Below are positions 11,307 to 52,545 of a stretch of DNA of 64,000 nucleotides, in pieces. Where the stretch lies: NCBI GenBank assembly GCA_012965045.1, contig DTSZ01000001.1:748024-812023 (forward strand), in the 5' to 3' direction. How positions within the stretch are numbered: the first letter of the stretch is position 1; every line of letters begins with the position of its first letter. This DNA comes from Candidatus Saccharimonadota bacterium (GTDB lineage: Bacteria; Patescibacteriota; Saccharimonadia; Saccharimonadales; DTSZ01). The notes under the pieces are model-generated. The model was not told where the DNA came from and did no database searches. It saw only the letters and a program-made list of their open reading frames with translations. The translations under genes and the position numbers were made by a program.

Positions 11307-11402
11307 TTCTTCCCTTCAAAAACAGTAGTAAAAAGCGTAGAATTAACACAAGCGACTTATGTGAGGCGCTTGTATTTCGTTGGATAAGCTGTTTAGGAGA
11401 AC

Positions 11403-19792: not shown

Positions 19793-19795
19793 ACA

Positions 19796-19824
19796 TTGAA
19801 ATTATGTCGAGCTTATGCTATAAA
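19796..19824 (+). promoter_or_regulatory. sigma70 promoter with extended -10 for the first ~350-aa subunit gene
   Basis: TTGAAA (19796-19801), 17-nt spacer ending TGc, TATAAA (19819-19824); AAGGGGA SD before ATG 19892. Confidence 0.55.
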
Positions 19825-19891
19825 TTCACTATAGTTTTAAACATCAAAAACTAATAGCTATTATAAAAAACAAACAAAGGGGAAGATTATT

Positions 19892-20941
19892 ATGAATCTG
19901 ACTGCTATACAAACTAAGCGGGCTGCATGGCGAGCTGCCATGACCGCAACTGTATTTGGCATGGTGCTGAGTACTGTTGCCCCAGCACTTGCGGTACCAA
20001 CAGACGTATCGCTTGAGCTCGGCGATTCTCGGGTGGATGAAACAAGCACCTATGTACTTGATATGAGTACAGTAGACACTGGCACAAGCTTGCAGTGTAT
20101 CGAAATTGACCTTGGCGCAAATGCCGACGGTTCTGGTGCAGTGAGTGGCCTCGATACATCAAGTTCTACTTTTGATGCGTCTGACATTGTTACCTTTGGT
20201 AGCTGGTCAGTCGACAACACAGCTAGCGCAGCTCACCAACTACGTATTACGAACGGCACTGGCGAGAACCCAAGTGCTACAGGTTCTATAACTTGGGGTG
20301 GTGTAACTAACGGCGATACAGCAGAAACAACCTACTACGCAGTTATGACAACCTATACTGACACTGGCTGTTCAACTGCTAACGAAACAACTACTGTTGC
20401 TTTCGTTTACACCAACGGCCAAGCCGTATCAGTAACGGTTGACCCAACACTGAGTTTTGACATTCAACCAGTTGCGTCGTCTACAGCTGTAGCTGGCACA
20501 ACTACAACAGCTACAACTACTGATGGTACTGTACCGTTCGGGTCAGTAACCTCTTCATCAAACGGTGTGGCTGCTCATGACTTACAAGTGGCAACCAACG
20601 CGTCGTCTGGGTATAACGTCTACCTTAGATACACCCAAGCTCTAACTAATGGTAGCGGTGACACAATTGACGATCACACAGGAACCTATGCTTCTCCATC
20701 AGCCTTCCCGGCTGCTGGAACCGAAGCCTTTGGCTTCCACACTGACGACACCGACGTTGCCGGTTTTGGGGCAAGTAACTTTGCAGCCTTTAAAACCAGT
20801 AACGAAATCGTTATGAGCCGAACAACTGCAACACCAAGTGCAGAAACAAACACTGTTGCGTATCAAGTAGGTATTTCTAACACCACAGAAAGTGGTACCT
20901 ACAACTCAACACTTATCTACACAGCTGTAGCTACCTACTAG
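19892..20941 (+). CDS. secreted beta-rich protein with C-terminal WxL-like domain (candidate surface-fibre/complex subunit, paralog A)
   Basis: 349 aa; signal peptide ...STVAPALA|VPTDVSLELGDSRV; Thr/Ser/Gly-rich with no Cys-rich or TM region; the C-terminal half is homologous to the giant protein's C-terminus; ends IYTAVATY*. Confidence 0.6.
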   Translation: MNLTAIQTKRAAWRAAMTATVFGMVLSTVAPALAVPTDVSLELGDSRVDETSTYVLDMSTVDTGTSLQCIEIDLGANADGSGAVSGLDTSSSTFDASDIVTFGSWSVDNTASAAHQLRITNGTGENPSATGSITWGGVTNGDTAETTYYAVMTTYTDTGCSTANETTTVAFVYTNGQAVSVTVDPTLSFDIQPVASSTAVAGTTTTATTTDGTVPFGSVTSSSNGVAAHDLQVATNASSGYNVYLRYTQALTNGSGDTIDDHTGTYASPSAFPAAGTEAFGFHTDDTDVAGFGASNFAAFKTSNEIVMSRTTATPSAETNTVAYQVGISNTTESGTYNSTLIYTAVATY

Positions 20942-20964
20942 TTATAGGTTAGATACCAAGCAAA

Positions 20965-20994
20965 AGCACCCAAATAGAACTGGGTGCTTTTTTG
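20965..20994 (+). terminator. intrinsic terminator after subunit paralog A
   Basis: AGCACCCAaatagaacTGGGTGCTtttttt. Confidence 0.75.
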
Positions 20995-21161
20995 GTATTT
21001 GGGTGTTTGAAGTGTCCGTTATGTATAACCAAAGTGCTAACCACGGGTTTTAGTGTTAAAATGGTGTTAAATTTTAAACATAAGCCTGTCTTATGTATGA
21101 CATAGGTGTTTATGTTGAAAATTTGGATATAAAAAGAAAATGATTAGAGAGAGGGAGAAAA

Positions 21162-22217
21162 TTGCGTATGCAAAAAACCAACCAATTATCAATCAATGCG
21201 CTTAAGGCTGTTGCCTTAGCAACGAGTGTGGTGGGCTTGTTGTTCGGTGTGTTCACGCCTGTAGCGGCAGCTCCGAGTGATGTGTCGCTTGAGCTTGGCG
21301 ATTCTAGAGTCGGTGAAACAAGTACATACATTATCGACATGTCAACGATCGATACCGGTACTAATCTAGAATGTATCGAAATCGATATGGGAACAAGTAT
21401 CGACGGCACGGGTTCAATCAGTGGCCTTGATACCTCAAGTTCTACATTTGATGCAACTGACTTAGTTACCTTTGGTAGCTGGTCTGTCGGCAACACTGCC
21501 AGCGCCGACCACAAGCTTCGTATAACCAATGGTGTTGGTGAAGCTCCAAGCGCTTCTGGTTCTATTACCTGGGGCGGAGTTACAAACGGTGACACGGCTG
21601 AAACAGCCTACTACGCTGTTATGTCAACCTACACCGACGCAGCATGTTCGACTACTCACGAAACATTTACAGTGGCTTTCATTTACACTGATGGCCAAAT
21701 TGTTTCTGCAACAGTCGACCCAACGCTAACCTTCGACATTCAACCAGTTGCTAGCTCACAAGCAGTTGCTGGTACTACTACAACAGTTTCAACAACTGAT
21801 GGTTCAATACCATTTGGTTCAATTACTGCTGTAGCGAACGGCGTAGCAGCGCATGACCTGCAAATCACTACTAACGCGTCATCTGGATACAACGTCTACC
21901 TTCGCTACACTCAACAGCTTACGAGTGCGGCAAGTGACACGATTGACGACCACACAGGAACCTATGCTTCCCCAACATCCTTCCCGGCTGCTGGTACAGA
22001 AGCCTTTGGTTTCCACACTGATGACGGTGATATAGCTGGTTTTGGTGCAAGTAACTTTGCGGCTTTTAAAACTAGTAACGAAGTCGTAATGACAAACACT
22101 GTCGCTGCAACATCTGCAGAGACAAACCGAGTTGGCTACCAAATTGGTATAGCCACCACAACTGAGAGCGGTACGTATACGACCACTCTTATTTACACAG
22201 CAGTCCCGACGTACTAA
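21162..22217 (+). CDS. secreted beta-rich protein with C-terminal WxL-like domain (paralog B)
   Basis: 351 aa, collinear with paralog A along the whole length (e.g. PSDVSLELGDSRVGETSTYIIDMSTIDTGTNLECIEIDMG vs PTDVSLELGDSRVDETSTYVLDMSTVDTGTSLQCIEIDLG). GAGGGAG SD; start TTG 21162 or ATG 21168. Confidence 0.6.
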   Translation: MRMQKTNQLSINALKAVALATSVVGLLFGVFTPVAAAPSDVSLELGDSRVGETSTYIIDMSTIDTGTNLECIEIDMGTSIDGTGSISGLDTSSSTFDATDLVTFGSWSVGNTASADHKLRITNGVGEAPSASGSITWGGVTNGDTAETAYYAVMSTYTDAACSTTHETFTVAFIYTDGQIVSATVDPTLTFDIQPVASSQAVAGTTTTVSTTDGSIPFGSITAVANGVAAHDLQITTNASSGYNVYLRYTQQLTSAASDTIDDHTGTYASPTSFPAAGTEAFGFHTDDGDIAGFGASNFAAFKTSNEVVMTNTVAATSAETNRVGYQIGIATTTESGTYTTTLIYTAVPTY

Positions 22218-22317
22218 CGCTGACGTAACGGCGTAGTACGCCTGACAACAAAGGTGGGCAATTTGCAAACTTGCTTACGCTTAAGGTAAACTTAATATAA
22301 AATTAACAGAGGTAAAT

Positions 22318-23382
22318 TTGCTTATGGTAACTACACTTCGTCGCTCGCTAGCTTTGCTTGGGCTAATCGCGGCAGTAACGCTCGTAGCGTTATTCAATCT
22401 ATCATCAACAAGCGCACAAGACGCAGAACCAGGAAATGCGCTGAGTATTTCCCCGTTCAAATTCGAACTTGACGCCAATCCTGGCGATTCAATCGAACGC
22501 ACAATTCGTGTAACTAACAATGCTGATGTGCAACAAGATATTTCAATCTTGGTTAAAAACTTCACTGCTGACGGTGAAGAAGGACAGGTTAATCTAACAG
22601 AAGACGCTACTTCGTACTCTATTGCAGAGTGGGTAACCGTCAACAAGTCTGAAAGTACAATTCCTGGCCGTACGTCAGAAACATACACGTTTACAATTGA
22701 CGTTCCAGAAAACGCTGAACCAGGCGGACACTTTGGATCAGTCGTATTTGCAACTGACCCAGTAGAGGTTGAAGGTGATCAGAGTGGTGCCACAGTAAGT
22801 GGTGAAATCGCTGCCCTTCTGCTCGTACGAATCGATGGTGACATCGAAGAAGAAATTAGTGTTGCATCTTTCGAAGCTGGTGTCGTTACAACCGACGCTA
22901 ACGACGATGAAGTATTCGACGAAAAATCTTCTTTCGAAAATGGTCCTGTGACATTTGAAACTCGTTTTAAAAACGACGGTAATGTTCACTTAGCTCCAAC
23001 CGGTACGATCACCATTAAGAACATGTTCGGTAGCGTAGTTGAAACACTGCAGCTTGAAGAGCAAAACGTTCTACCCGACGCCGTACGACGTTCACTCGCT
23101 GAATGGGACCCAGGTTTCTCAGTTGGAACATACACAGCTGAACTTGAGGCAACCTATGGTGAAAACAGTACAGTTATTACCGCAGAAACCTCATTCACTA
23201 TCTTCCCATGGAAGGTACTTGTGCCAGTATTCTTAGCAGTTGTTGCTGTTATCGTGGTACTTGTCAAAGGACGAGGACGAATCGCAAGTGCATTCAAAGC
23301 TCTTGAAGGTAAAAATACTGCTGACGCCCCTAAAAAGCCTGCAGCAAATAAAGACGACACTAGCAGCAAAGACAATAGCTAG
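22318..23382 (+). CDS. DUF916/DUF3324-like surface protein with C-terminal TM anchor, copy 2
   Basis: 354 aa; signal peptide; LSISPFKFELDANPGDSIERTIRVTN; VPENAEPGGHFGSVVFA; IAALLLVRIDGDI; TM VLVPVFLAVVAVIVVLV plus a basic/Lys-rich tail. Paralog of 18890. Confidence 0.55.
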   Translation: MLMVTTLRRSLALLGLIAAVTLVALFNLSSTSAQDAEPGNALSISPFKFELDANPGDSIERTIRVTNNADVQQDISILVKNFTADGEEGQVNLTEDATSYSIAEWVTVNKSESTIPGRTSETYTFTIDVPENAEPGGHFGSVVFATDPVEVEGDQSGATVSGEIAALLLVRIDGDIEEEISVASFEAGVVTTDANDDEVFDEKSSFENGPVTFETRFKNDGNVHLAPTGTITIKNMFGSVVETLQLEEQNVLPDAVRRSLAEWDPGFSVGTYTAELEATYGENSTVITAETSFTIFPWKVLVPVFLAVVAVIVVLVKGRGRIASAFKALEGKNTADAPKKPAANKDDTSSKDNS

Positions 23383-23399
23383 AAGTTGTTAGGATTAAG

Positions 23400-24764
23400 G
23401 TGTTTTTACATCGTACATCCGTAGTAAAAGTGTGCTATCTACTGGGTAGCACACTTTTTGCTATTGCCCTGTTTCTACTCGGAAGCAGCCACGTCCATGG
23501 GCAAACTACGCCTGTAGAACTGGTTGTTCCTGACACGGTACTCATTATTAGCGGTAAAACGGCGCCGAATTCCTTCGTAACCATTAAACGTGGCAAAGCT
23601 GTTATTAGCACCTTGCAGTCTGATTCCAATGGTGATTTTTCACAAAGTATTGGTGCTCAACCATTTGGGGCGCAGACGATATCGATTTTTTCACGCGATC
23701 AAGAAGGCGTGGCTACCGACACTGTGAGCCAAGCTATACACATAGAACCGCAAACCGACACCTATATAGACTTTTTCTTGCCACCAACACTTACGCTGAG
23801 TACTGCTAACATTCAAGAAGGTTCTGATCTAACCGTACGCGGCACGGGCTACCCAAACAGTACCGTCGAGATAAACATAGACAATAATTATTTCCTGCAG
23901 GTCAAAACCGATGCCTCAGGCAGATGGCAATCTGTAGTTAGTACCGACAACTTTTTTATTGGCAAGCACACAGTTAACGCTCTTGTAGTTGATTCAATCG
24001 GCTCGCAAAGCGCCCGAACATTATCTCGAGTATTTACTGTCTTTGGCGATCCTAATCCACCGCTAGAAGCAAAAATTCCCGTTATCACCAGCCCCTACGA
24101 CGGCCAGCGCTTTGGAACGCGCAATATTGTTGTAAGTGGTAGTGCGCAAGAAAATGTTCGAATCGAGCTTTTTAGCGACGGCGAACTTGTGGGATCGATT
24201 TTTAGTAATAGCCACGGGCGTTGGAGCATACCATTATCGCTGTACGGCTCAAGTGCTTCCCTACGGGCTCGTGAATGTGTCGGCGGTGTGTGTGGCCAGT
24301 TCTCGGACACTGTCGATATAACCTTTGTTGGCGATGCGCCGGCAGATGGACTGCGGCTATCGCTGAACGACTACAGTTTAACGACGCGCCTCAACGACAA
24401 ACTCAAGGTAAATGCCCGCATAAGTGACGGCAACGAACCGTATGAGCTGTACGTAGAGTGGGGCGACGGACTGTTTACTCGTCGCACCCAATTACAAGAA
24501 GGCGTAAATGTGCTCGATCATTCGTATTTCGATGTCGGCTACTATAACGCTACTATTACCGCGACCGACCAGGACGGAAATACTACTATCCAATTCTTCA
24601 CTGTTGAGGTGATACCGGCTGAAGGTGGCGTGATTGCAAATATATGGTGGGTGTTTCTAGCGGCTTTCTTAATCGTTTACAGTATCGAGCATTATTGGCG
24701 GACTCACTGGTATCACAAACGACGCAAAACAGAAGTAAAAGGGCCAAAACACATTCCTTTTTAA
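23400..24764 (+). CDS. surface protein with Ig-like repeats, a PKD domain and C-terminal TM anchor
   Basis: 454 aa. PKD-like YELYVEWGDGLFTRRTQ...HSYFDVGYYNATITATDQDGNTT; C-terminal TM WWVFLAAFLIVYSIEHYW. Start uncertain (GTG 23400 or GTG 23430) because a terminator-like hairpin sits in the first 60 nt. Confidence 0.6.
   Translation: MFLHRTSVVKVCYLLGSTLFAIALFLLGSSHVHGQTTPVELVVPDTVLIISGKTAPNSFVTIKRGKAVISTLQSDSNGDFSQSIGAQPFGAQTISIFSRDQEGVATDTVSQAIHIEPQTDTYIDFFLPPTLTLSTANIQEGSDLTVRGTGYPNSTVEINIDNNYFLQVKTDASGRWQSVVSTDNFFIGKHTVNALVVDSIGSQSARTLSRVFTVFGDPNPPLEAKIPVITSPYDGQRFGTRNIVVSGSAQENVRIELFSDGELVGSIFSNSHGRWSIPLSLYGSSASLRARECVGGVCGQFSDTVDITFVGDAPADGLRLSLNDYSLTTRLNDKLKVNARISDGNEPYELYVEWGDGLFTRRTQLQEGVNVLDHSYFDVGYYNATITATDQDGNTTIQFFTVEVIPAEGGVIANIWWVFLAAFLIVYSIEHYWRTHWYHKRRKTEVKGPKHIPF
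23426..23459 (+). terminator. perfect 12-bp hairpin plus U-run, 44 nt after the stop of 22318..23382 and inside the 5' end of the next ORF
   Basis: AAAAGTGTGCTAtctactgggTAGCACACTTTTt. Confidence 0.5.
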
Positions 24765-30365: not shown

Positions 30366-30404
30366 ACGAAATGTAGTATATCACCTCTGTGAATTTGTTT
30401 AGGT

Positions 30405-30887
30405 GTAAGCTGTCGCTTACTAAAACTAATACTCCATTTGTACAGACAAACGGAACCCAAAACTGCTGGGCGATTCATTTAATTCTTTATGTGTTGTTAG
30501 TTATTAAAACGTTCTCAATAAGAGTACTTGATGTAAAAGCGCTCCCAGCACTTTTACTCAGGCACGCTTCTCTCGGTGAGGATCACACGTTTTGAATAAC
30601 AACATTCACATCAGGAACTAAATGTTTTATGCCCAGACCCAAGCGAGCGAAGCTCGCTAACCCACTCCGAAAGCTTCCTGATCAGCGAGCGTTAAAAATA
30701 CAATTTAAGCGAAGAACTCTGTATGAAGTAATCAAACAAAAATATAGTCAGACCGACTGAAAGGAGTTGTTCTGAGCATTGTATTTATTAACAAGCGAGA
30801 TGATAAAGAAGGTTGAGTGTGGTCGTGTTTTTGGCTTCCGTTTTTGATGAGACAAAAATGGAAGGATGCTGAGAAGCGTAGCTTGCC
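30405..30887 (+). ncRNA. unclassified large (~480 nt) structured RNA, copy 1
   Basis: Homologous to 34258-34733, including a 40-nt block with one mismatch (30433-30472 vs 34283-34322). Hairpins retain pairing through compensatory substitutions; crossing helices 30466-71/30631-36 and 30610-17/30675-82 form a pseudoknot. Only short, non-conserved ORFs overlap it. Confidence 0.6.
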
Positions 30888-30935
30888 TATTAAAAATCAT
30901 TAAAATATAAATTTTTACCATGTAAACTATTGGTA

Positions 30936-34240: not shown

Positions 34241-34257
34241 TTTAATAGAATTATTAA

Positions 34258-34733
34258 GCAAACTGTCGTTTGCGATTAATGTTCCATTTGTGCAGACAAA
34301 CGGAACCCAAAACTGCTGGGCGGAGTCACTTTTCTTTATTATTTGTTGCTAATTTAAATTGTTCTCATTCAGAGTGCATTCAATCAATAAGCCCCCAGCT
34401 TATTGAAGAAGCACACTTCACTCGGTGAGGTTCACACAATTTGAATCACAACATCTAATCAGGAAAACTGTCTTTTGTGCCCAGACCCAGCGAGCGAAAC
34501 TCGCACTGCAGCTAATCCACTCCGAAACCTTCCTGATGAAGAACGTATCAATAACAATTGTTCGAAGGGCGAGGACCACAAATGTGAGATTACGAACATT
34601 TTCTCGCAGCCAATTGTTATTTATACAAGAGAATCATAACGAAGAGTGAGTGTGGTGATCTTTTGGCTCCACCGTTTTGATCACTCAAAATGGTAGAAAT
34701 GGATGCAAGCGCCAGCTTGCTTAAACTATTTTT
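34258..34733 (+). ncRNA. unclassified large structured RNA, copy 2
   Basis: Same order of conserved blocks as copy 1; ends with hairpin GCAAGCgccaGCTTGC (34705-34720) followed by a T-rich run. Sits between the murE-like stop and a convergent gene, so it is not a 5' leader. Confidence 0.6.
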
Positions 34734-34738
34734 AAAAA

Positions 34739-35527
34739 CTATCTTAACGTCAGGGTTAAACACTTTATCCCACCACCGGATTTTTTGAATTCATTGATTT
34801 TTATAGCATGGGTATTAAAACCAGCGTTGCTAATGTCTTGAATAAGCTGTGGTGCGTCGGCGCTGATAACTACGTTGTTGCCGTCGCTAAACGTATTTAG
34901 GCCAAAGCCGATGGCGTCGGGCTCGCTGGCAATAATTACCGTACCTGCGAGTGCTTTAAGTTTTTCTTGTGCTTCTGGTGAAAAGGCGCCAGGGAAGTAG
35001 GCTAATGTGTCGTCGTTTAGCACAGTTAAACAAGTGTCGATGTGATAAAATCGTGGATCGACAAGTTCAAGTGAAATAACCTCTTGGTCTGTGAAAGTAT
35101 TCTGTAGCTCTTGATGAGACGCAAGGTCAGACCTAAACCCGTGCCCCGCTAAAATTTTGTTTCCAAAAAGTAGTGCGTCACCTTCGCCTTCAAAGTCAGC
35201 ATGCGGGATAGTTGTCTGCGAGTAGCCATTTTGAGTAAACCAATGCTTAAACAATTGAGTTTCAGGTTGGCGCTCAGGGAATTTAAATCGAGGTAACACC
35301 ACTTTGCCATCGATAACTAACGCTCCATTAGCGGTAAACACCATGTCCGGCAAGCCGCTTACTCCATCAATAAGTTGAATGTTATAGCCAAGAAAGTTAT
35401 AAATCTCAAAAAGCTCAATCCATTGTTGTTTGGCGCGCTGTGTATTAACGGGAGTGTCCGTTTTCATCCAGGCATTAATTTCGTAGCTAACTTCAAAATA
35501 ATCTGGTCGGCACATAAGTATATTCAT
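34739..35527 (-). CDS. amidinotransferase/DDAH-like guanidino-group-modifying enzyme family protein
   Basis: 262 aa; MNILMCRPDYFEVSYEINAWM N-terminus; catalytic-Cys C-terminus GGGIKCLTLTL typical of the arginine deiminase/DDAH/amidinotransferase superfamily. Confidence 0.65.
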   Translation of the reverse strand: MNILMCRPDYFEVSYEINAWMKTDTPVNTQRAKQQWIELFEIYNFLGYNIQLIDGVSGLPDMVFTANGALVIDGKVVLPRFKFPERQPETQLFKHWFTQNGYSQTTIPHADFEGEGDALLFGNKILAGHGFRSDLASHQELQNTFTDQEVISLELVDPRFYHIDTCLTVLNDDTLAYFPGAFSPEAQEKLKALAGTVIIASEPDAIGFGLNTFSDGNNVVISADAPQLIQDISNAGFNTHAIKINEFKKSGGGIKCLTLTLR

Positions 35528-35596
35528 AAGCTATAAGTGTAAATTAACATTGCATAATCGACTAAATGTTTTTTAAATGTGCTATATTATCTGTTA

Positions 35597-35857
35597 ATGA
35601 CAAGTCCAGAATCACCCAAACCAACAGTTGAGGAACGAGCTTTACAGGCCTTTAAAGAGTCTGTTGAAAGAATGGCCCGTGAAACTTTATCAGGGGCAGA
35701 GGAGCATACTTCAGAGGCTGTAGCATATTACAAACACCCCGACCGGACAGACGGAGAGCGAGTTGCATTTGCACTAGGAAGCCTAGTCGGCTCTTATGTC
35801 GAAGCGCTAAGGTTTGCCTCACTAGTTGACGCCGACATTGGTGCTAGTCTCTTATAA
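35597..35857 (+). CDS. hypothetical small protein
   Basis: ATG 35597 lies 8 nt after TGcTATATT (35580-35588), so the track start 35579 is inside the promoter. No recognisable motif. Confidence 0.45.
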   Translation: MTSPESPKPTVEERALQAFKESVERMARETLSGAEEHTSEAVAYYKHPDRTDGERVAFALGSLVGSYVEALRFASLVDADIGASLL

Positions 35858-35941
35858 TATTGACTAACAGTCAATATAATGCTATTGTTTATTTATTAAT
35901 TCACAAATTCACAAAAACAAAAAAAGGATATAAAAATAAAA

Positions 35942-36394
35942 ATGGAACAATTACCAGCACCCTCAAGTGAAGTTCAAAATATAATCGATAGCGATAATTT
36001 TACAGTCAACGAGATAGATGCGTTTGAAAGCGGCGCTCAAGCTTTATCAGAGTCGGCTACTCCAGAAGATCGTACTGAAGCCTTTCAGTTAGTAGTAGAT
36101 TCATCAGATGAGCCTGACTTAGCTCGCTTTCGGCGCTACCTTAATGCACGAAGACAAGATGATTCTGTAAGTGAACAGATGAATGCAGCCTATTTTGATG
36201 AAACATCCCCACCGCCCAACTCAAAACTACAAGATGCTGTCGAATATGGAGAAAGCACCGTGTCGCGGAAAATTGATGTCGTTAACAAGACAAAAGATGC
36301 TGTCAAAATTTTTGTTGATAACCGAGGTATCGTGCATTCGAATAAGGCAGAGGCTCTTACTACCGAGCGTACTTACGATAAACTAGCGCACTAA
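35942..36394 (+). CDS. hypothetical acidic protein
   Basis: 150-aa ORF with AAAGGA SD-like upstream; no recognisable motif. Confidence 0.5.
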   Translation: MEQLPAPSSEVQNIIDSDNFTVNEIDAFESGAQALSESATPEDRTEAFQLVVDSSDEPDLARFRRYLNARRQDDSVSEQMNAAYFDETSPPPNSKLQDAVEYGESTVSRKIDVVNKTKDAVKIFVDNRGIVHSNKAEALTTERTYDKLAH

Positions 36395-36520
36395 ACCAAA
36401 AATCGCCCAGTATTTAATTAAATACTAATATTGAATTATTTATAAAAATATGATATAAATACAACACCCTAGGTGAACCAAAGGACTTCTCTGGTTTGCT
36501 TCCCCTATCAAGGAAAGGGT

Positions 36521-37111
36521 GTGATTGAGTTGCGTAAGCACCTCACGTTCTTGTCCATCGACTACCCTGTAGCACTGGCTGGCTTGTTGGCCCTTGGACT
36601 GGCGTTCGTCATGCTCCTGGCCACACCAGCGCATGCGCAGCGTCCACCAAGCGAAGAGCCGCCTCCAGCGTCCTGCGCTGGCGTCGACCAGGACATCATC
36701 GAGATGCCGGTTGACGTTGCGGTTGCCAGCTTCTACGGCGGCAACGGTCTGGTCTCATCCGACTATCTCGTCGCCGATGCGCTGGCTCCGGCCGCACCTG
36801 TGCGTCGTGCTGTGGCGTCGACCTTCGCTGCCGACACGCCCGACCTACCAAGGTCCACCGTCGAGATGCTCGAGCACTACGCTTCGCTCTACCACGACCT
36901 TGGTATCGTTATCATCGGTGGCACCGCCGCCGTTGACGACCTGCAGGCCCAGCGTATCGCCGACCTGGCTGCTGACCTGGGAGCTCCCGATGTGCGCGTT
37001 ATGCGCATCGCCGGCGAGACTGGTCTCGACACCGCCGCAATGGTAGGCTGCGTAGTTGCAGCGAAGGCCCGGTACACGTTCGAGAACTCCACGTACTCCA
37101 GCCTGCGCTAG
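36521..37111 (+). CDS. secreted protein with a CWB2-type (cell-wall-binding repeat 2-like) domain, encoded on a GC-rich patch
   Basis: GTG 36521 after AGGAAAGG; signal peptide LAGLLALGLAFVMLLATPAHA. SSDYLVADALAPAAP...GIVIIGGTAAVDDLQAQRIADLAA..VRVMRIAGETGLDTAAMV matches the CWB2 pattern (ADALs..GG..avs..RiaG.dRy.Ta). 39/60 GC at 36661-36720 versus 20/60 at 35941-36000. Confidence 0.55.
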   Translation: MIELRKHLTFLSIDYPVALAGLLALGLAFVMLLATPAHAQRPPSEEPPPASCAGVDQDIIEMPVDVAVASFYGGNGLVSSDYLVADALAPAAPVRRAVASTFAADTPDLPRSTVEMLEHYASLYHDLGIVIIGGTAAVDDLQAQRIADLAADLGAPDVRVMRIAGETGLDTAAMVGCVVAAKARYTFENSTYSSLR

Positions 37112-37172
37112 GGCTACCTGCCAACGCCTGTTACTAGAGGAAGAAGTTGAATGACATGAACTCACTACAAAC

Positions 37173-37237
37173 AACCCCGCTACGCTGGTCGCTCACGCGA
37201 CATCAATTTACAGCAACAGCGGGGTTCATACTTTTTA
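37173..37237 (+). terminator. compound hairpin plus U-run ending the GC-rich patch
   Basis: AACCCCGC...(inner GTCGCtcacGCGAC)...GCGGGGTT then catacttttt. Confidence 0.4.
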
Positions 37238-37299
37238 CCTAGTTATATAAATACTTCACTGACGTAATTGTGTAAATCGAAGTTAGTTAACAGTTTAAT

Positions 37300-38262
37300 T
37301 TAATCATGGCGAATATATAAATATGGTGAGCCACTGCTCAGGCTTGTATGAAGGTTTTCTAAATCTGCTAGATTAGCCTCGCCTGGCTCAAGTTCTGGCC
37401 CTATATACTCAACCAAGCTATTTGGGTATTCTCGCGCGACATTAATCGCTCGCTGGTATAAGGTGATGTATTCACTTTCTTCAGGGTCTAAAAAGGCAAA
37501 CTCTTGATCGGGTGATTCATCATCAAATAGTTCCTCTGGAAGCTCTGGTTGTTTGCATTCTTGTTTCTTGCGCAGTTTATAAGCTCGCAAACGCTTCTTA
37601 ATGCCCGAGGGACACTTTTCGGGATAGCTCGCCTGAACCGCTGCAATAGTTGGCGGGACTAAGCGTGGGGAAACTTCTATTTCTTTCGGAAAAAGATCCT
37701 CGAATAAATTCACTAATTTTCTTGAAGCTCTTTGAATTTGTTCGTCGCGGTAGGTGCGCGCTATTGGCATAACAATGTCAGGGTAGTGTTTGCGAGCTAC
37801 TGGCACACGCTCTACTCCATCGTGCTGCAAGCGAATACTGGCGATTGCATTGTCAGTAAGTTCAGCTCTGGTGTCTTCGAAGTCTTGCCCTTGGAATCGA
37901 ACCACCAACATTCGCTTGTTGTCATATTTCATAACTTTTATCCGTGGGTCGGTAAGAGTTATTTCATCACGCCCATTCATTTGTCGAAAATCCTCCGATG
38001 CGTGGATCATTAAGCGGTATGGATTGTCGGATCCTTCAGGAAAGTACGCCTCAGGTTGAGAGAAAGTGTTTAGCGGTACACACGGACGATATCTTCGGCG
38101 CAACTCGGAAAGATTTTGTTCATGCACGCCATCAAAAAAGGCCGCTAAAGCGACCTGTGATTCAATAGTTGGGGTTAAAAGTAGTCGTGGCTTGTTTGGC
38201 TCGTACTCGTGCCAAGCGTCCACGGGTGTCTCTTGTGGTGTTTGTTTTAGACTACCTCTCAC
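37300..38262 (-). CDS. hypothetical protein
   Basis: 320-aa ORF with normal composition; no motif I can name. Confidence 0.55.
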   Translation of the reverse strand: MRGSLKQTPQETPVDAWHEYEPNKPRLLLTPTIESQVALAAFFDGVHEQNLSELRRRYRPCVPLNTFSQPEAYFPEGSDNPYRLMIHASEDFRQMNGRDEITLTDPRIKVMKYDNKRMLVVRFQGQDFEDTRAELTDNAIASIRLQHDGVERVPVARKHYPDIVMPIARTYRDEQIQRASRKLVNLFEDLFPKEIEVSPRLVPPTIAAVQASYPEKCPSGIKKRLRAYKLRKKQECKQPELPEELFDDESPDQEFAFLDPEESEYITLYQRAINVAREYPNSLVEYIGPELEPGEANLADLENLHTSLSSGSPYLYIRHD

Positions 38263-41805: not shown

Positions 41806-43947
41806 ATGCATATATCAGAAATATATCTTCTTAATAACAATGTAGAAGCCAGCCAATGGTCTGTTTTGCATCAAGTTATTCTGCAAAATATTGGATGGTT
41901 ACGGGCATACGAGCTTTTACTGGTAAATGAAGAAAATAGAATTCGGTTTTTTGTATCAAGCAAGTATGACCTTAGCTCGATATCCAGCAATGTCCCAGGA
42001 TTTATATTGCGTCCGGTAACTTCAACCGATTTTAACCCACAAATCATCGGTAAGGTACGGTTTATTCGATTTGTAACCGGCGGGAACATTTTAGAATTGT
42101 CTGAGAAATATCAGATTAAAAAAGGACTAACTTTTAAAGCGATTCGTTTTAAGACACGAAAAATTCTACCTAACTTCAACTCCATTCAAACAAAACTATT
42201 CTTTAAAAATGCCGCCGACCAATCACTCGTAAACACAAAGCGAGTCCTGCAATTACCAACGCATCTACTAACGATTTCTTTTAAAGGCGATACAAAGTAC
42301 GTCAAAAAAGAACCGCCAAAATATCTTAATATTGAAAAAACTCAATATTTACTTAATCCGGACCCACTAAATGAAGTGTTTGAGGTCGAGGGGTTCCCGT
42401 ATCTATCACGCAAACATTATTTAAATATTGGAGCATTTGATTTTGATAAGCACTCGCTGATTGTTGGAGCTAGTGGTAGTGGTAAATCGAAGCTTATATC
42501 ACTACTTATTGATCGAATCCTCGCTACTGGTCAAGAAAATAACTATCGCATAGCTGTTGTAGACCCGCACGATTCGCTCAGGACAGAACTTGAACACATA
42601 CAACAAAAGCGTGTCTTTAACTTCGCCCAAGAATCGAGTGAGTTGTTCCCGCAAGTGCAAGACATTCAGGCAGCTACAGAACTGACTTCTCAGTTATTAA
42701 AGACGCTAATGGCCGACCAAGCAAACCCACGATTGGAACGAGTTTTACGGTTCAGCCTCTTCGCTTTATTTGCTAATAAAAAAATGAACTTCGATAACTT
42801 GAAACGGTTTTTAACAGATCTAGAATTTAGAACCCAGCTTATTAAAGAACCAAGCCTACCGCTCAACGTGCAGCAGTTTTTTATGACTGACTTTAACGAA
42901 ATTCGTACCCAAAACTACAACGAAGCCATTGTGCCGATAGTGTCATTGGTAGAAGAAGTGTCTTTTTTGCCGTCAATGGGTGGAAGTGAAGATAAAGAAT
43001 CGCTTGGCAAATCCATTACCAAACAGTTTTTGACAATCTTTTCACTTAAAAAATCATCGAGTGGTGAAAGATTAGTAAAAACAGTTGCTGGCACAATAAT
43101 TCAAAATATTTTTCTGCTGGCTCAAGCTGGGGAGTTTCGTCGCAAAGTAATTCTTATAATCGACGAAGTTTCAGTGGTGCAAAACCCAACTCTCGCTGCG
43201 ATTCTATCAGAGGCACGAAAGTTTAATGTTTCACTAATTCTAACGCAGCAGTATCTGAACCAGGTAGATAAAACCATCCTAGATGCAATTTCTTCAAATG
43301 TGCAGAACTACTATATATTTAGGGTTTCTGAAGAAGACGCAAAGGTTTTAGAGAAGAATATAGAGATGACAATTCCCGACCAGACACTCGAGGAAGCAAA
43401 AGCTAAAGGTATTAATGAATCAACGCTGCGAGCTCGCTATATGGTTGAGCAAGATGCGAGACAGGTAATAATTCGTCTGTCCGCTAATGGCCAAGTGCAC
43501 CCCGCAATTCAAGGTCGTACTGTAGATGCTAATTTCGGAAACGTGACACAAGCGCATTTGACGACGCCCCAACCCGTCATTGATCTTGATTCTACAAAGC
43601 AGCAATCTGCACCTGTATCAGCCCAGCAACCTGCTCGGTCTACTGCTAATCAGCAACCCAATGCAACAGAAGTCTCTCAGCCTGCATCGCAGTTCATGCT
43701 CAAAAAAATTGACCCCGCTAAATTAGAATCATCTAAAATTAATCCTGATGATCCGCACTCCATGGTAACAGGCAACACTCGTTTTGATGATCGGCAGATG
43801 GTAGACATGGAAGACTTTAATACGGACGTACCACCAGACCAAGCTGTAATAAATAAACCAGAAGATTTACCACCACCGTCAGCAGTGGAATTACTTCGAT
43901 ATTTTTCAACTAATAGCCAATTTGAAAGGGATGACAAAGATGAATGA
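41806..43947 (+). CDS. FtsK/HerA-superfamily P-loop ATPase (VirB4/VirD4/DUF87-like) with Gln/Pro-rich C-terminal tail
   Basis: 713 aa with no TM. Walker A LIVGASGSGKSKL; Walker B VILIIDEVS; ARKFNVSLILTQQYLNQ, typical of T4SS/HerA-type ATPases. TGcTACAGT at 41789-41797 lies 8 nt before the ATG. Confidence 0.6.
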   Translation: MHISEIYLLNNNVEASQWSVLHQVILQNIGWLRAYELLLVNEENRIRFFVSSKYDLSSISSNVPGFILRPVTSTDFNPQIIGKVRFIRFVTGGNILELSEKYQIKKGLTFKAIRFKTRKILPNFNSIQTKLFFKNAADQSLVNTKRVLQLPTHLLTISFKGDTKYVKKEPPKYLNIEKTQYLLNPDPLNEVFEVEGFPYLSRKHYLNIGAFDFDKHSLIVGASGSGKSKLISLLIDRILATGQENNYRIAVVDPHDSLRTELEHIQQKRVFNFAQESSELFPQVQDIQAATELTSQLLKTLMADQANPRLERVLRFSLFALFANKKMNFDNLKRFLTDLEFRTQLIKEPSLPLNVQQFFMTDFNEIRTQNYNEAIVPIVSLVEEVSFLPSMGGSEDKESLGKSITKQFLTIFSLKKSSSGERLVKTVAGTIIQNIFLLAQAGEFRRKVILIIDEVSVVQNPTLAAILSEARKFNVSLILTQQYLNQVDKTILDAISSNVQNYYIFRVSEEDAKVLEKNIEMTIPDQTLEEAKAKGINESTLRARYMVEQDARQVIIRLSANGQVHPAIQGRTVDANFGNVTQAHLTTPQPVIDLDSTKQQSAPVSAQQPARSTANQQPNATEVSQPASQFMLKKIDPAKLESSKINPDDPHSMVTGNTRFDDRQMVDMEDFNTDVPPDQAVINKPEDLPPPSAVELLRYFSTNSQFERDDKDE

Positions 43948-44644
43948 TCAAAAAGCAAAGCAAATTTTAGATAAAATAATTGCCGAAATTTTTGGGGTAG
44001 AAAACCCAATGAGTCTACATGATTTTCAGCAAAAGTACGCTTTTGATATCAATCTGCCTAAAGAAACCAACTCATCGGTGAGTGGTGAGCAGACATGGGC
44101 TGGCTCAATAAATCCTGCTCGTTTTATTACTCAAGAGGAGATGCGAGCTAAAACCAACGAAGCCGACTGGATGTATGAAAAGAAGCCACTTAGTAATATC
44201 GGAGATATCTTAGAGGCTTGGAATGAAGTTAACTTAACCCTAACCGAAAAACAAAACGATAGTATTAATATTGCGCGTTCTGACGCAGTTATTGGTAGCG
44301 AAAACGTGTGGTGGAGCCAATCAGTTATTAAGTCTAAAAACATCCTGCTGTCAGACGATGTCATTAACTGTGAATACGTAGCAGCGGGGCATAAAAGTAA
44401 TAATTCTACCTTTTGTGCACGGCTAGAAGACTCACAGCAATGTACGGCTAGCTTTAACATTACCTGGAGTGGGAAAATTGCCAAAAGTCTATTTTTGCAC
44501 GACTGCTATGACTGCTATGAGTGCATGTTTAGCAGCCATATAGCTGGTAAACGGTTTGTTATTGCTAACATGCAATTCGAAGAAGAAGAGTATTATAAGC
44601 TCAAAGAACAAGTTGTTCAGTGGTTGCTGGCCCCCGGCAGCTAA
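43940..44644 (+). CDS. hypothetical Cys-rich protein, translationally coupled to the ATPase
   Basis: ATG 43940 overlaps the ATPase stop (ATGAATGA); alternative starts at 43922/43931. C-terminal CEYV..FCARLEDSQQC..LHDCYDCYEC cluster suggests metal binding. Confidence 0.5.
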   Translation: MNDQKAKQILDKIIAEIFGVENPMSLHDFQQKYAFDINLPKETNSSVSGEQTWAGSINPARFITQEEMRAKTNEADWMYEKKPLSNIGDILEAWNEVNLTLTEKQNDSINIARSDAVIGSENVWWSQSVIKSKNILLSDDVINCEYVAAGHKSNNSTFCARLEDSQQCTASFNITWSGKIAKSLFLHDCYDCYECMFSSHIAGKRFVIANMQFEEEEYYKLKEQVVQWLLAPGS

Positions 44645-44746
44645 ACATAGCAAACAGAGCTGGGTTGATAGTTGTTTACTTAATGGACAAAATGTCAATA
44701 ATATGCTAATGTTTACATTAGTTACAGAAAATATAAAAACAAAAAA

Positions 44747-44992
44747 ATGGAAACACTACAGCCAGCACCGGCAGAAGCACAATCACACCTCGACACCGAG
44801 CCAATTATTGCTGCGCCAGAAGAAATTGAGATCGAATCTGGGCTAGCTCTTGTTTATAACCTAAATGGGGAGCACGTTGCGTTTGGATTAAACCCAGACG
44901 AACAGCCTGCTGGTAATCTGAGCAAATTTATGCGAATCCAATTATATAAACCAATACATTTGACAAATAACAAATCATGGGAGTATATTTGA
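44747..44992 (+). CDS. hypothetical small acidic protein
   Basis: 81-aa ORF; promoter/leader motif ATGCTAATGTTTA..TTAGT.ACA at 44703 is shared with 60307. Confidence 0.4.
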   Translation: METLQPAPAEAQSHLDTEPIIAAPEEIEIESGLALVYNLNGEHVAFGLNPDEQPAGNLSKFMRIQLYKPIHLTNNKSWEYI

Positions 44993-45122
44993 GATTAAGC
45001 GTTAGCTTACAAATTATGAAGTTTTTTAAAAACAAACATAAAGACCACTTGAAGCTTGAAAAAGCAGAGAGTACACTACAAATCAAATCAAGAGGACGGC
45101 CTGTGCGGGCCGATTTTTAATT

Positions 45123-45608
45123 ATGAGTGGATCTTTTTCTGCAGACATTATCAACCATGGGTTACCACGACCGCAGGTCGATGAGGCTTGGAGAAACTCG
45201 CCGCTTATGGGAATGATTACCTCAGAGCAGAGGAGAGCATTAGTGGGCGGTGATGAAGAAGCCTTCACATCAGTTGCTACGTTTGCTTTTCGGCACCTAG
45301 GTATGCCGGCGGTGTTCGGTGATTTTGTTAAACCCGATGACACCTTTACTGCTCGACGAGTTAAGAACGAGCTCCAACGCAGAGAAGTCGATCATACTAA
45401 GATCGGACCGAATGCTAAGCGGAATTTATTCAATGAATTGTATGGCCTTATTGAACGGTCTCTTGACCCTGTAGAAACAGACCAGTTTGTGCATGAATTA
45501 CAAGTCGCTTCAGAGGAAATGCAAGAATTGTCTAAAGTGATTGATAATAGAATTGCCCAAGAAGCTGGCTATTTGGCGGTCTTTGATTCAGTTCCTGTCG
45601 CTGAATAA
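45123..45608 (+). CDS. hypothetical protein
   Basis: 161-aa ORF; terminator-like AACGTCgattagaGGCGTTttttt at 45636-45659 lies downstream. Confidence 0.5.
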   Translation: MSGSFSADIINHGLPRPQVDEAWRNSPLMGMITSEQRRALVGGDEEAFTSVATFAFRHLGMPAVFGDFVKPDDTFTARRVKNELQRREVDHTKIGPNAKRNLFNELYGLIERSLDPVETDQFVHELQVASEEMQELSKVIDNRIAQEAGYLAVFDSVPVAE

Positions 45609-50614: not shown

Positions 50615-50944
50615 CTAAATTAGATAAAAAACTATAATTACAAGTAAGAAGTAAAGTACAACCAACGACCTAACGGTCCTTCTTGAGACGTTAATGTCCG
50701 CAAATTTCTTTGTGTAAAATTGTATAAAGCTTCTACCGCCCATTTCCGGTCGCCATTTTTGTTCAAGCTGTTGCGGTAAACATCCTTTAAAAATGACCCA
50801 CGAAACTATAGTTACAGCTATAAGTACGGTAGTAAGAGTTTTGGCCAGCTCGTAGAAAATACCCATAGGTAAGCCAAAAACAATAAGCAGAATCCATAGC
50901 AGATGAAACAACGCAGCCATATTTGCTTTAACTCTGTTCGACAT
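50615..50944 (-). CDS. DUF2784-like small membrane protein
   Basis: 109 aa with three or four TM helices; HLLWILLIVFGLP...GCLPQQLEQKWR resembles the DUF2784 pattern. Confidence 0.45.
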   Translation of the reverse strand: MSNRVKANMAALFHLLWILLIVFGLPMGIFYELAKTLTTVLIAVTIVSWVIFKGCLPQQLEQKWRPEMGGRSFIQFYTKKFADINVSRRTVRSLVVLYFLLVIIVFYLI

Positions 50945-50960
50945 AATAATTCCTAGTTAC

Positions 50961-51050
50961 TGGCGGAGAGAGGGGGATTCGAACCCCCGAGACCCGATTG
51001 GGTCTACTACCTTTCCAAGGTAGCGCACTAAGCCGCTATGCGATCTCTCC
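50961..51050 (-). tRNA. tRNA-Ser (anticodon GGA)
   Basis: The reverse complement reads GGAGAGA..ctaccTTGGAAAggtag..long variable arm..GGGGGTTCGAATCCCCC..TCTCTCCGCCA. Confidence 0.93.
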
Positions 51051-51370
51051 GTTTGTAAATTCGTCGAAGCGTGGTCACGTTCCGCGACCCCATAATTTCT
51101 GCCAAGCTAACAAGTTAGCTGGTGAAAGTTCTCTTGCAAAATGCTACTAGCATTTCTCACCTTCAGCCTCTCGCCTGCTTGACGGTAGGTAAGGACATCA
51201 CTCCTAGCAGGTACTAGAGAGCCATAAACTCTCTGCTTAGAAGAGTATACGATTTATATTCTTTTCTAAAAAGAGAGTGTTAGGCGGACGGAAAGTCGAA
51301 GAGTAGAGGTGAGTGCGGGTGCACTAACACATACATCTTCGAGCTCCGCCCGCGGTTGAACTAGATCAGG

Positions 51371-51904
51371 TTAGATGAAGGCTAGGTCTTCATCCGGGTC
51401 TGCGGCCACGAACGGCGTTTGTGGTGATTCACCAAGAGCGGCCTTGAAGGCCTCGCAGTAGGCGATGACCTCTTCGATAGACAGAGCGAACTCGCTCTCA
51501 GCACGCAATCGGCCGTTGCTGAACGGCACGAAGTTGCTCACGACGTCGGTGATCCCGTACGTTGCGATCAGCTCATCGCGGTCGTCTGGGGTGCCAGTCC
51601 CGAACTCGTACCACGCACGGTTCGGGGTGTTCGCGAAGGTAGCGATCTGGCGAGGGCGTTCGGTGAACACCATCCAGGATTCGTTTTCCGCGATCTGCTG
51701 AGCATGCCAGTACTCCAGGTCGGCACTGGCGCTGTCGCGCAGTTCTTGTCGTCGTGCCTCCATGAAGCTGTGTCTCTGCTTCATGTGGTAGACCTCATCG
51801 AAGGTCAGCAGGGTGCTGACCCCGTTGTTGGCGCTCCCGCGGTAGAGCGGCTTTGAGCCACTTGGGATGTAGATGCCCCCGGGGGAGACAGCGTATTCGG
51901 TCAT
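51371..51904 (-). CDS. hypothetical protein on a GC-rich patch
   Basis: 177-aa ORF; 34/60 and 39/60 GC in lines 51421 and 51541; G/C-ending codons dominate, unlike its neighbours; no motif recognised. Confidence 0.55.
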   Translation of the reverse strand: MTEYAVSPGGIYIPSGSKPLYRGSANNGVSTLLTFDEVYHMKQRHSFMEARRQELRDSASADLEYWHAQQIAENESWMVFTERPRQIATFANTPNRAWYEFGTGTPDDRDELIATYGITDVVSNFVPFSNGRLRAESEFALSIEEVIAYCEAFKAALGESPQTPFVAADPDEDLAFI

Positions 51905-52122
51905 GTCTTGTCCTCCTTAAGGACTCGTTTGACTTTAGTGCCGAATTGTCGGCTTTAAAAGTACAAACATACCCTAAAAGCCAACAACTCAGCTACTGAT
52001 CTAGATCTGTTAAAGAACACCTAAATCCTCACAGACTTAAGTCTATATATAATAACACAAAAACAACAAAAAAGCAATATCGAGCATGGTATATAATTAG
52101 TTAAATTAAGAGGGCAATCTGA

Positions 52123-52545
52123 ATGAACGTAGATATAAACATAGTGGGAGTATTAGCTGGAGCAGCTGCCAGTATAGTTATTGGGTCAATTTGGTATTCA
52201 AACGCAGCGTTTGGTGACAGTTGGATGAAATTGGCTGGACTTACCGATAAAAAAGTTAAAGCCGGCATGACCAAGGCAATGATAACTACCTTAATTACCA
52301 CGTTAATAATGAGTTTTGTATTAGCCCACGTGATCGGCCTGAGCGTATTTTTTTACACTGACTACAGTTATCTGAAAGCAGCTATTATAACTGCACTTTG
52401 GATGTGGCTTGGTTTTCAGTTTACCCACATCACTATGAACGGTGCGTTTGAACAGAAGCCAAAAAAATTACAAATGATTAACAAGTTCGGGCAGCTGGCT
52501 AGCATTTTAGCCATGGGCATAACTATTGGTTTGATTGGACAGTAA
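52123..52545 (+). CDS. DUF1761 family membrane protein
   Basis: 140 aa; GSIWYSNAAFGDSWMKLAGL motif; four TM helices. Confidence 0.6.
   Translation: MNVDINIVGVLAGAAASIVIGSIWYSNAAFGDSWMKLAGLTDKKVKAGMTKAMITTLITTLIMSFVLAHVIGLSVFFYTDYSYLKAAIITALWMWLGFQFTHITMNGAFEQKPKKLQMINKFGQLASILAMGITIGLIGQ

Follow-up and report, generated by a model that had tools for sequence, protein, structure and literature searches.

The 64,000-nt stretch of a Candidatus Saccharimonadota genome analyzed here (the window; contig DTSZ01000001.1, positions 748,024 to 812,023) contains a GC-rich islet of 782 bp (~0.78 kb) at window positions 36463–37244. The islet is foreign in composition to the resident genome, which is ~43% GC, and carries one gene, with a coding signal, for a 196-aa orphan protein that has no detectable homologue. 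It is present in several assemblies, and the 1.77-kb intergenic segment in which it lies is absent from the one syntenic relative found. The reading favored here, to which we would assign a probability of roughly 0.6, is that it is a small, horizontally acquired single-gene cassette, encoding an exported orphan protein and derived from a moderately GC-rich donor.

In outline, a donor of ~55–63% GC would have contributed ~0.78 kb of DNA, which would have come to lie in a slot between genes in a Saccharibacteria genome of marine origin (Lau Basin plume). Since natural competence has been shown for cultivated Saccharibacteria (PMC10633639), entry by DNA uptake is probable; the most likely route would be uptake of foreign DNA by this means and then illegitimate recombination using a short microhomology. 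The cassette would consist of a Shine-Dalgarno (SD) site, a single 196-aa open reading frame (ORF), and a strong compound hairpin terminator, with transcription probably starting at a promoter-like site in the adjoining AT-rich native DNA. Its product would have a signal peptide or membrane anchor, a proline-rich linker, and a domain of ~140 aa, and would most likely be exported to work in the cell envelope or on the surface of this episymbiont.

Composition, signals, and setting of the islet

The features of the islet and its edges are as follows (window coordinates; strand where it applies):

36409–36426: perfect 18-bp AT palindrome AGTATTTAATTAAATACT, 15 bp past the stop codon of a 150-aa ORF
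36431–36459, + strand: promoter-like TTGAAT, 17 nt, TATAAA, in the AT-rich spacer left of the islet (putative, as read from the sequence)
36453–36462: left copy of the perfect 10-bp direct repeat ATATAAATAC flanking the islet
36510–36519, + strand: SD-like AAGGAAAGGG, ending 1 base before the GTG at 36521 (as read from the sequence)
36521–37111, + strand: islet gene, 196 aa, GTG start (an alternative GTG at 36473 would give 212 aa)
36521–36637, + strand: signal-peptide-like N-terminus, aa 1–39 (RKH stretch, hydrophobic core, and ...TPAHA/QRPP, the slash marking the putative cleavage site)
37173–37237, + strand: compound GC-rich hairpin and U tract, a likely intrinsic terminator
37245–37254: right copy of the perfect direct repeat ATATAAATAC
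Predicted empty-site junction: GATATAAATAC joined to TTCACTGACG

In 300-bp windows the GC content is 0.57–0.65 at 36450–37199, vs. 0.35–0.47 on both sides. Over 600-bp windows the whole 64 kb has a mean of 0.434 (sd 0.040), and only two regions, 36.4–37.3 and 51.2–52.0 kb, rise above the mean + 3 sd; the second is considered below. The rise (at ~36450–36540) and the fall (at ~37200–37230) are both resolved in 60-bp windows. The GC contents of the ORF at its first, second, and third codon positions (GC1, GC2, and GC3) are 0.70, 0.48, and 0.73, while GC3 is 0.29–0.41 in the neighboring genes and has a median of 0.373 across the 69 ORFs of the window. Among synonymous codons its preferences are the reverse of those seen in native genes (the Leu codon TTA, for example, occurs 0 times vs. 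a native share of 0.26), and the 3′ untranslated region (UTR) and terminator are likewise GC-rich.

An earlier note on this DNA, made from the sequence alone, had described a GC-rich patch here with long additional ORFs in other frames, bounded on the left by the AT palindrome and on the right by a compound GC hairpin, and had taken it to be probably foreign, from a GC-richer source. The patch is where the note placed it, the codon usage deviates, the extra ORFs are present (36594–37046 on the + strand; 36845–37174, 36889–37092, and 36696–36851 on the − strand), and the right-hand hairpin is real and strong; the foreign origin is borne out by composition, and by that only. The palindrome AGTATTTAATTAAATACT on the left is exact and is situated in AT-rich DNA of native composition; folded as RNA it gives only a weak hairpin (−3.5 kcal/mol, z −1.9, with 15 of 200 shuffles folding equally well).

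The islet lies between two copies of ATATAAATAC. This 10-mer occurs three times in the window, twice on the + strand and once on the − strand, and it is both + strand copies that flank the islet. The repeat is suggestive only, a hint of microhomology or target duplication and not evidence of either. As a signature of a mobile element the flanking direct repeats were rejected as not significant, as was a possible inverted repeat at the termini, noticed by eye around CCTAG.

The islet ORF is most probably a real protein-coding gene. Of 5000 shuffles of the islet, 1 matched its 3-base GC periodicity and 21 matched the length of the ORF (212 codons, counted from the upstream start). The 196-aa reading is that of the NCBI call HIA92247.1 (“Candidatus Saccharibacteria bacterium”), while the JGI calls have 212 aa, from the GTG at 36473. 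Within AAGGAAAGGG an AAGGA core is followed by a 6-nt spacer to the GTG of the shorter form. The promoter-like pair TTGAAT/TATAAA was not listed by the promoter consensus scan, which requires a T at position 6 of the −10 hexamer. In the downstream hairpin, an outer stem formed by AACCCCGCT and AGCGGGGTT (37173–37181 and 37218–37226) holds an inner hairpin, and is followed by CATACTTTTTA, with a U tract running to 37237. On the + strand it folds to −26.7 kcal/mol (z −7.0, with 0 of 200 shuffles as stable) and on the − strand to −30.4 kcal/mol (z −3.75); it probably acts as the intrinsic terminator for transcription of the islet gene, and perhaps for that of the convergent 320-aa gene as well. 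The ORF also contains imperfect inverted repeats (36766–36782 and 37003–37019, 17 nt, 88%) and direct repeats (36668–36689 and 36802–36823, 22 nt, 86%), which may contribute to the excess RNA structure predicted for it.

The islet occupies the right-hand part of a 1772-bp segment (35528–37299) between an ADI-family gene and the gene for the 320-aa protein, with three co-oriented + strand ORFs that are opposed to both flanking genes. The two besides the islet gene are:

35579–35857, + strand: 92-aa ORF, first gene of the segment, lineage-specific, native composition (GC3 0.34)
35942–36394, + strand: 150-aa ORF, second gene of the segment, lineage-specific, native composition (GC3 0.32)

Neither has a Pfam, NCBIfam, PHROG, or PADLOC match. 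One syntenic relative was found, a 204-kb ENA scaffold (L003), in which the order GroEL-GroES-126aa-(peptidase C15)-PMM-306aa-ADI-MurE-TsaD-ValRS is kept as in the window; here just 45 bp lie between the ADI gene and the gene for a 306-aa protein, the counterpart of the 320-aa one. What is absent from this relative is thus the whole 1.77-kb segment, including its two ORFs of native composition, and the comparison is with a distant genome. No relative of any of the three slot ORFs was found in L003 or in the other fetched non-self loci (13 of Saccharimonadia type), and across ~160 kb of other Saccharimonadia-type loci there is essentially no comparable islet (one 500-bp window, in locus L050, barely reaches the median + 0.12). 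An alignment of the ADI family recovered 80 loci, none of them near enough to date the insertion; the 320-aa neighbor itself had no match in genome contigs, and its alignment none in metagenome contigs. This slot, with the ADI gene on one side and the 320-aa gene on the other, seems to be a hotspot of plasticity. As the earlier note had said, there is no integrase or transposase nearby: neither these nor any other recombinase domain occurs among the called genes within ~10 kb.

The islet protein and the cell-wall-binding reading

The 196-aa protein is probably exported, to judge from its N-terminus. The Kyte-Doolittle mean, in 19-residue windows, peaks at 2.18 at aa 19–37 and then drops to −0.76, and aa 15–34 are helical in an AlphaFold2 model. 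A Pro-rich linker, QRPPSEEPPPAS, follows, and then an acidic (pI ~4.3), Ala/Val/Asp-rich region of ~140 aa, which is modeled as a domain of alternating strands and helices. The earlier note had described a secreted protein; export and cleavage are predicted here from the signal-peptide-like N-terminus.

Homologues of the 196-aa protein were sought widely, and the protein matched only itself, both in a word-indexed search of 5.8 billion clusters and in a HMMER filter-only search, without a word index, of 1.84 billion representatives. There was no match among PDB sequences, in tblastn searches of six-frame translations of phages and plasmids, or in scans of viral and metagenome contigs. NCBIfam, PHROGs, and PADLOC gave nothing above noise; a Pfam match to MerR_2 was rejected as noise (15–17 bits, vs. 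a cut-off of 29). A Foldseek search against the PDB with the poor AlphaFold2 models returned nothing at E ≤ 0.001 and only generic alpha/beta folds at E ≥ 0.19, with TM-scores ≤ 0.28.

The first alternative, an unlikely one, is that proposed in the earlier note: a wall-binding module of the cell-wall-binding repeat 2 (CWB2) type, acquired from an actinobacterial host and letting the episymbiont bind host-type wall polymer. The islet protein is apparently exported, like the CWB2 proteins (PF04122; the C. difficile Cwp family and SlpA; PDB 5J72, 5J6Q, and 7ACY); by eye, its short motifs ADAL, IIGGTAAV (IIGG-x3-V), and RIAG..(D)TA resemble CWB2 landmarks; and the strands and helices predicted by AlphaFold2, albeit in poor models, alternate as in these proteins. 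A hand-picked 88-aa excerpt matches PF04122 (CW_binding_2) over profile positions 12–70 of 73 (14.2 bits, E 0.068), which is 10.7 bits short of the gathering cut-off of 24.9. The full-length protein has no match to this profile at E ≤ 1, and the 157-aa mature region none at E ≤ 10.

For a closer comparison, a typed CWB2 consensus was confirmed by its PDB matches to Cwp6, Cwp8, and SlpA (E 1e-42 to 1e-16, with three aligned stretches in each), and nine real CWB2 repeats were taken from these solved-structure alignments for small hidden Markov models (HMMs) and an hhalign profile. The small HMMs gave the islet protein 5.7–7.6 bits, scores reached by 18 of 5000 and 1 of 5000 shuffles; the better was a permuted HMM of the C. 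difficile repeats, with which it beat 4999 of 5000 shuffles, yet at only 7.6 bits. With hhalign, the probability of a match to the nine solved repeats was 12.5%, over 32 columns, aligning IVIIGG...VDDL...LAADLGAP to the first half of the repeat. The Pfam register, covering residues 3–77 of the excerpt, from before ADAL to IIGGTAAV, is incompatible with this. Such conflicting registers are as expected between sequences rich in Ala, Val, Asp, Gly, and Leu.

The architecture does not fit either. Anchoring by CWB2 requires three tandem, non-identical repeats of ~90 aa, and a P[ILV][ILV][LV] (“PILL”) motif is conserved and essential for it (PMC4973711). The mature islet protein, of ~157 aa, has room for one or two such units but not three, and no internal tandem repeat was detected in it; no P[ILV][ILV][LV] tetrapeptide occurs in the 196-aa sequence, in which the nearest are PVRR, PDVR, and PVDV. 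No homologue links the islet protein to the family. The CWB2 fold is a toprim-like alpha/beta one that forms a pseudo-trimer; with AlphaFold2 models too poor for a usable comparison as query, no CWB2 protein is among the 50 best Foldseek matches listed. When the CWB2 consensus was itself searched against plasmids by tblastn, its seven matches were all to Bacillota genera. The CWB2 identification is not supported, there being no profile match at Pfam's own threshold, an outcome that the earlier note had named as refuting its reading. The practical lesson is one of caution: here a resemblance at the level of motifs did not survive profile tests.

The actinobacterial origin fares no better. The nearest relatives of the protein had been expected among Actinomycetota; in 15 billion proteins there was no homologue, actinobacterial or other. 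As a yardstick for the donor, GC3 of the neighboring ADI-family gene was compared across the fetched loci. In nine Actinomycetota (locus GC 67–75%) it is 0.87–1.00; in 11 of the 12 Saccharimonadia-type loci sampled (locus GC 50–59%), 0.56–0.83; and in Armatimonadota and Planctomycetota (locus GC 58–66%), 0.64–0.84. The islet gene, at 0.73, is far from the sampled Actinomycetota and within the range of the other groups, and together with the 0.76 of the gene in the second islet (below) this points to a donor of ~55–63% GC. Such a range would admit another Patescibacterium, a phage, an actinobacterium of moderately high GC, and members of many further phyla; actinobacterial lineages of 55–63% GC, or partial amelioration, may be compatible with a GC3 of 0.73. 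An actinobacterial host as donor is neither required nor favored: a high-GC donor need not mean Actinomycetota, because other Saccharimonadales reach 55–60% GC.

The best relatives of the ADI/amidinotransferase-family gene beside the slot (34739–35527, − strand) are Saccharimonadia (45–51% identity; loci L005–L084), followed directly by the Actinomycetota Streptacidiphilus, Nocardia, and Nakamurella (47–49%), which suggests an old exchange between Saccharimonadia and Actinomycetota for this gene of native composition. To that extent inter-phylum exchange is plausible in general, a point on the side of the actinobacterial reading.

The second islet and competing explanations

The other region of exceptional composition in the window is a second GC-rich islet of the same kind, 15 kb from the first. 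Its features are:

51290–51940: second (twin) GC-rich islet, GC 0.58–0.61 in 300-bp windows
51371–51904, − strand: twin-islet gene, encoding a 177-aa orphan; GC1, GC2, and GC3 of 0.58, 0.45, and 0.76
51284–51353, − strand: long compound hairpin and U tract after the stop codon of the 177-aa gene

The twin lies ~240 bp from the 5′ end of a tRNA-Ser(GGA) gene (50961–51050, − strand). A perfect SD site, AAGGAGGA, is found 7 nt upstream of the ATG of the 177-aa gene, whose GC periodicity was reached by 0 of 5000 shuffles and its ORF length by 33 of 5000. The 123-nt stretch containing the terminal hairpin (51250–51372, − strand) folds to −39.9 kcal/mol (z −6.1). The 177-aa protein, like that of the first islet, matched only itself, and had no viral relative; tblastx matches of the twin to actinobacterial loci do not keep to the frame of the ADI gene at those loci and were dismissed as compositional. 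The proteins of the two islets show no relationship to each other, and the two islet DNAs have no similarity beyond 10-mers. What they share is an architecture, with an SD site ahead of a single orphan ORF and a long compound hairpin at the end; the RNA of both is unusually structured, and each is flanked by direct repeats that are short.

In AT-richer genomes a GC-rich spot often proves to be an RNA gene, and a structured non-coding RNA with a fortuitous ORF is a second alternative for the first islet, although quite an improbable one. The whole islet folds with z −7.3, a value that is inflated because AT-rich flanks were shuffled together with the GC-rich core. The sense RNA of the coding sequence (CDS) has z −3.3, and that of the twin a more extreme −6.1, vs. 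+0.64 to −2.2 in ten control coding segments, six of which are GC-rich genes. Neither islet has a protein homologue, and the twin adjoins a tRNA gene on the same strand. All of this would suit an RNA. Against it, GC in both islets varies with a strong 3-base periodicity and is low at the second codon position (matched in no more than 1 of 5000 shuffles), and their ORFs are unduly long (21–33 of 5000), with SD sites at the right distance from their start codons, and the first has a signal-peptide-like N-terminus as well. The Rfam covariance models found no match at E ≤ 1 in 36300–37400. In 50900–52150 no family but that of the tRNA-Ser came up to its gathering score; the three matches below threshold are confined to 50900–51068, over the tRNA and outside the twin, leaving no Rfam family over either islet.

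A more far-reaching proposal, and a speculative one in which we have little confidence, would treat the shared architecture as that of undescribed minimal cassettes, which enter the spacers of a competent episymbiont without any recombinase of their own and supply it with surface or effector proteins; the 196-aa product could then be a minimal, divergent wall-binding module.

That the islet gene is native, with an odd composition imposed by selection on its protein or mRNA, is very unlikely. In its favor, there is no mobility gene adjoining it, the promoter-like site is in native DNA, a composition rich in Ala, Val, Asp, and Gly raises GC1, and the excess RNA structure might be under selection. 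Against it, GC3, which is largely free of amino-acid constraint, stands at 0.73 vs. the median of 0.373, the choice among synonymous codons is inverted, and the 3′ UTR and terminator are GC-rich too; the gene is, moreover, absent from L003 and all other Saccharimonadia-type loci fetched, where such islets are essentially lacking.

Least credible is an assembly chimera, in which reads of a GC-rich organism were joined into a Saccharibacteria contig: the composition does switch abruptly at both ends, and the sequence comes from metagenome assemblies only, but a mis-join, as the earlier note had itself considered, is unlikely when both junctions are included, at 100% identity to the window, in the separately assembled metagenome contigs Mariner_1000007 (202 kb, JGI 3300001678; identical over 8.0 kb) and Lau_10052870 (4.3 kb, JGI 3300001392; identical over 4.3 kb), and when a complete gene unit, with SD site and terminator, fits exactly between native genes. 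The independence of the JGI assemblies is partial, their samples being from one vent field. The identical protein is also recorded in two third-party annotation (TPA) metagenome-assembled genomes (MAGs), WGS project JYMV01, Logan, GEM, and JGI; the patch protein and the flanking 320-aa protein are each on three JGI contigs, and the two contigs retrieved carry both.

Several points weigh against the favored reading of a horizontally acquired cassette. With neither a donor nor a homologue found, horizontal transfer is an argument from composition alone. The relative L003 is distant, its 306-aa protein being 37–39% identical to the 320-aa protein of the window, and the difference between them may reflect loss in the L003 lineage instead of insertion here; with this as the sole syntenic relative, the insertion cannot be dated. 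The 10-bp flanking repeat would arise by chance with a probability of ~0.024 (two AT-rich spacers share a 10-mer ~2.4% of the time). All available copies of the islet gene are identical and therefore provide no evidence of purifying selection, and its sense RNA is more structured than that of any control segment, as described above. As for the product, expression of the gene is a prediction from sequence signals, cleavage at AHA/Q is putative, and the AlphaFold2 models, made without an alignment, have a mean confidence (pLDDT) of only 54.6 for the full protein and 43.0 for the mature domain, so that the fold is not usable.

Neighboring loci, known systems, and implications

Three other parts of the window drew attention. 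The first begins 4.7 kb downstream of the islet, where a cluster between GroEL and PGI (41806–45608) consists of a gene for a 713-aa TrwB/VirD4-like or HerA-like P-loop ATPase (Pfam TrwB_AAD_bind and DUF87; PADLOC mad8, 4.8e-16), followed by small ORFs that match no family; in L003 its place is taken by another gene, of 291 aa. The cluster may be a remnant of a defense system, a type IV secretion system, or a mobile element.

Second, the large ORFs at 9552–24764 are mostly unannotatable. They include a 2495-aa ORF (11403–18890) with only a weak BclA_C match, a protein with a WxL-interacting peptidoglycan-binding domain (22318–23382), and one with bacterial Ig domains (23400–24764), and this cluster may encode surface proteins.

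Third, two intergenic regions of ~500 bp (30366–30929 and 34241–34738), which flank FemAB-FemAB-MurE, are paralogous end to end, with 76% blastn identity over 268 bp, a mean column identity of 79% in a MAFFT alignment, and perfectly conserved blocks of 20–30 nt. For the copy at 34241–34738 the predicted fold is very stable (+ strand z −6.5, − strand z −5.5), and there is no Rfam match at E ≤ 1; of 91 consensus pairs, 10 show compensatory changes and 0 are broken. Neither the window, the fetched loci, nor viral contigs yielded a further copy, and L003 lacks both copies as well as both FemAB genes. The pair may represent a large structured RNA, or a large repeat, of a kind not yet described.

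Among known systems, the islet is best placed with the acquired orphan (ORFan) genomic islets: it has an atypical composition and codon usage and a single gene without a homologue, its intergenic slot is empty in a syntenic relative, and its twin is next to a tRNA gene. It differs from them in being GC-richer than its host genome, whereas it is more usual for orphan genes of bacteria, and for DNA newly acquired, to be AT-richer than the host; in its very small size (0.78 kb); in having no integrase, transposase, phage genes, clear att site, or inverted terminal repeats; and in its setting in a streamlined Patescibacteria genome (the longest contig with the islet is ~0.93 Mb, 929,678 bp). As an orphan genomic islet it would be mildly unusual in being GC-richer than its host, without mobility genes, and present twice, as a kind, within 15 kb.

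Integron gene cassettes, made up of a promoterless ORF and an attC hairpin, offer a second comparison. Both islets are compact single-ORF units with a long imperfect hairpin at the end, of similar size (0.65–0.78 kb), and integron cassettes are likewise often of orphan type. Unlike them, the islets form no tandem cassette array, and no IntI integrase or attI was seen; the ends of the hairpin do not fit, by eye, the attC R″/R′ core sites RYYYAAC and GTTRRRY; and the hairpin is succeeded by a U tract of the kind seen at intrinsic terminators. An attC reading of the islet hairpins was rejected.

If the reading as an acquired cassette is right, even at <1 Mb this streamlined Saccharibacteria genome retains single genes that were acquired very recently from GC-richer neighbors and are still unameliorated; there are two within 15 kb, neither with classical mobility genes. 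This would fit the idea that episymbionts gain new envelope proteins from DNA taken up through natural competence, and the orphan protein could reasonably be considered as a lineage-specific surface factor, should this organism or a relative be brought into culture.

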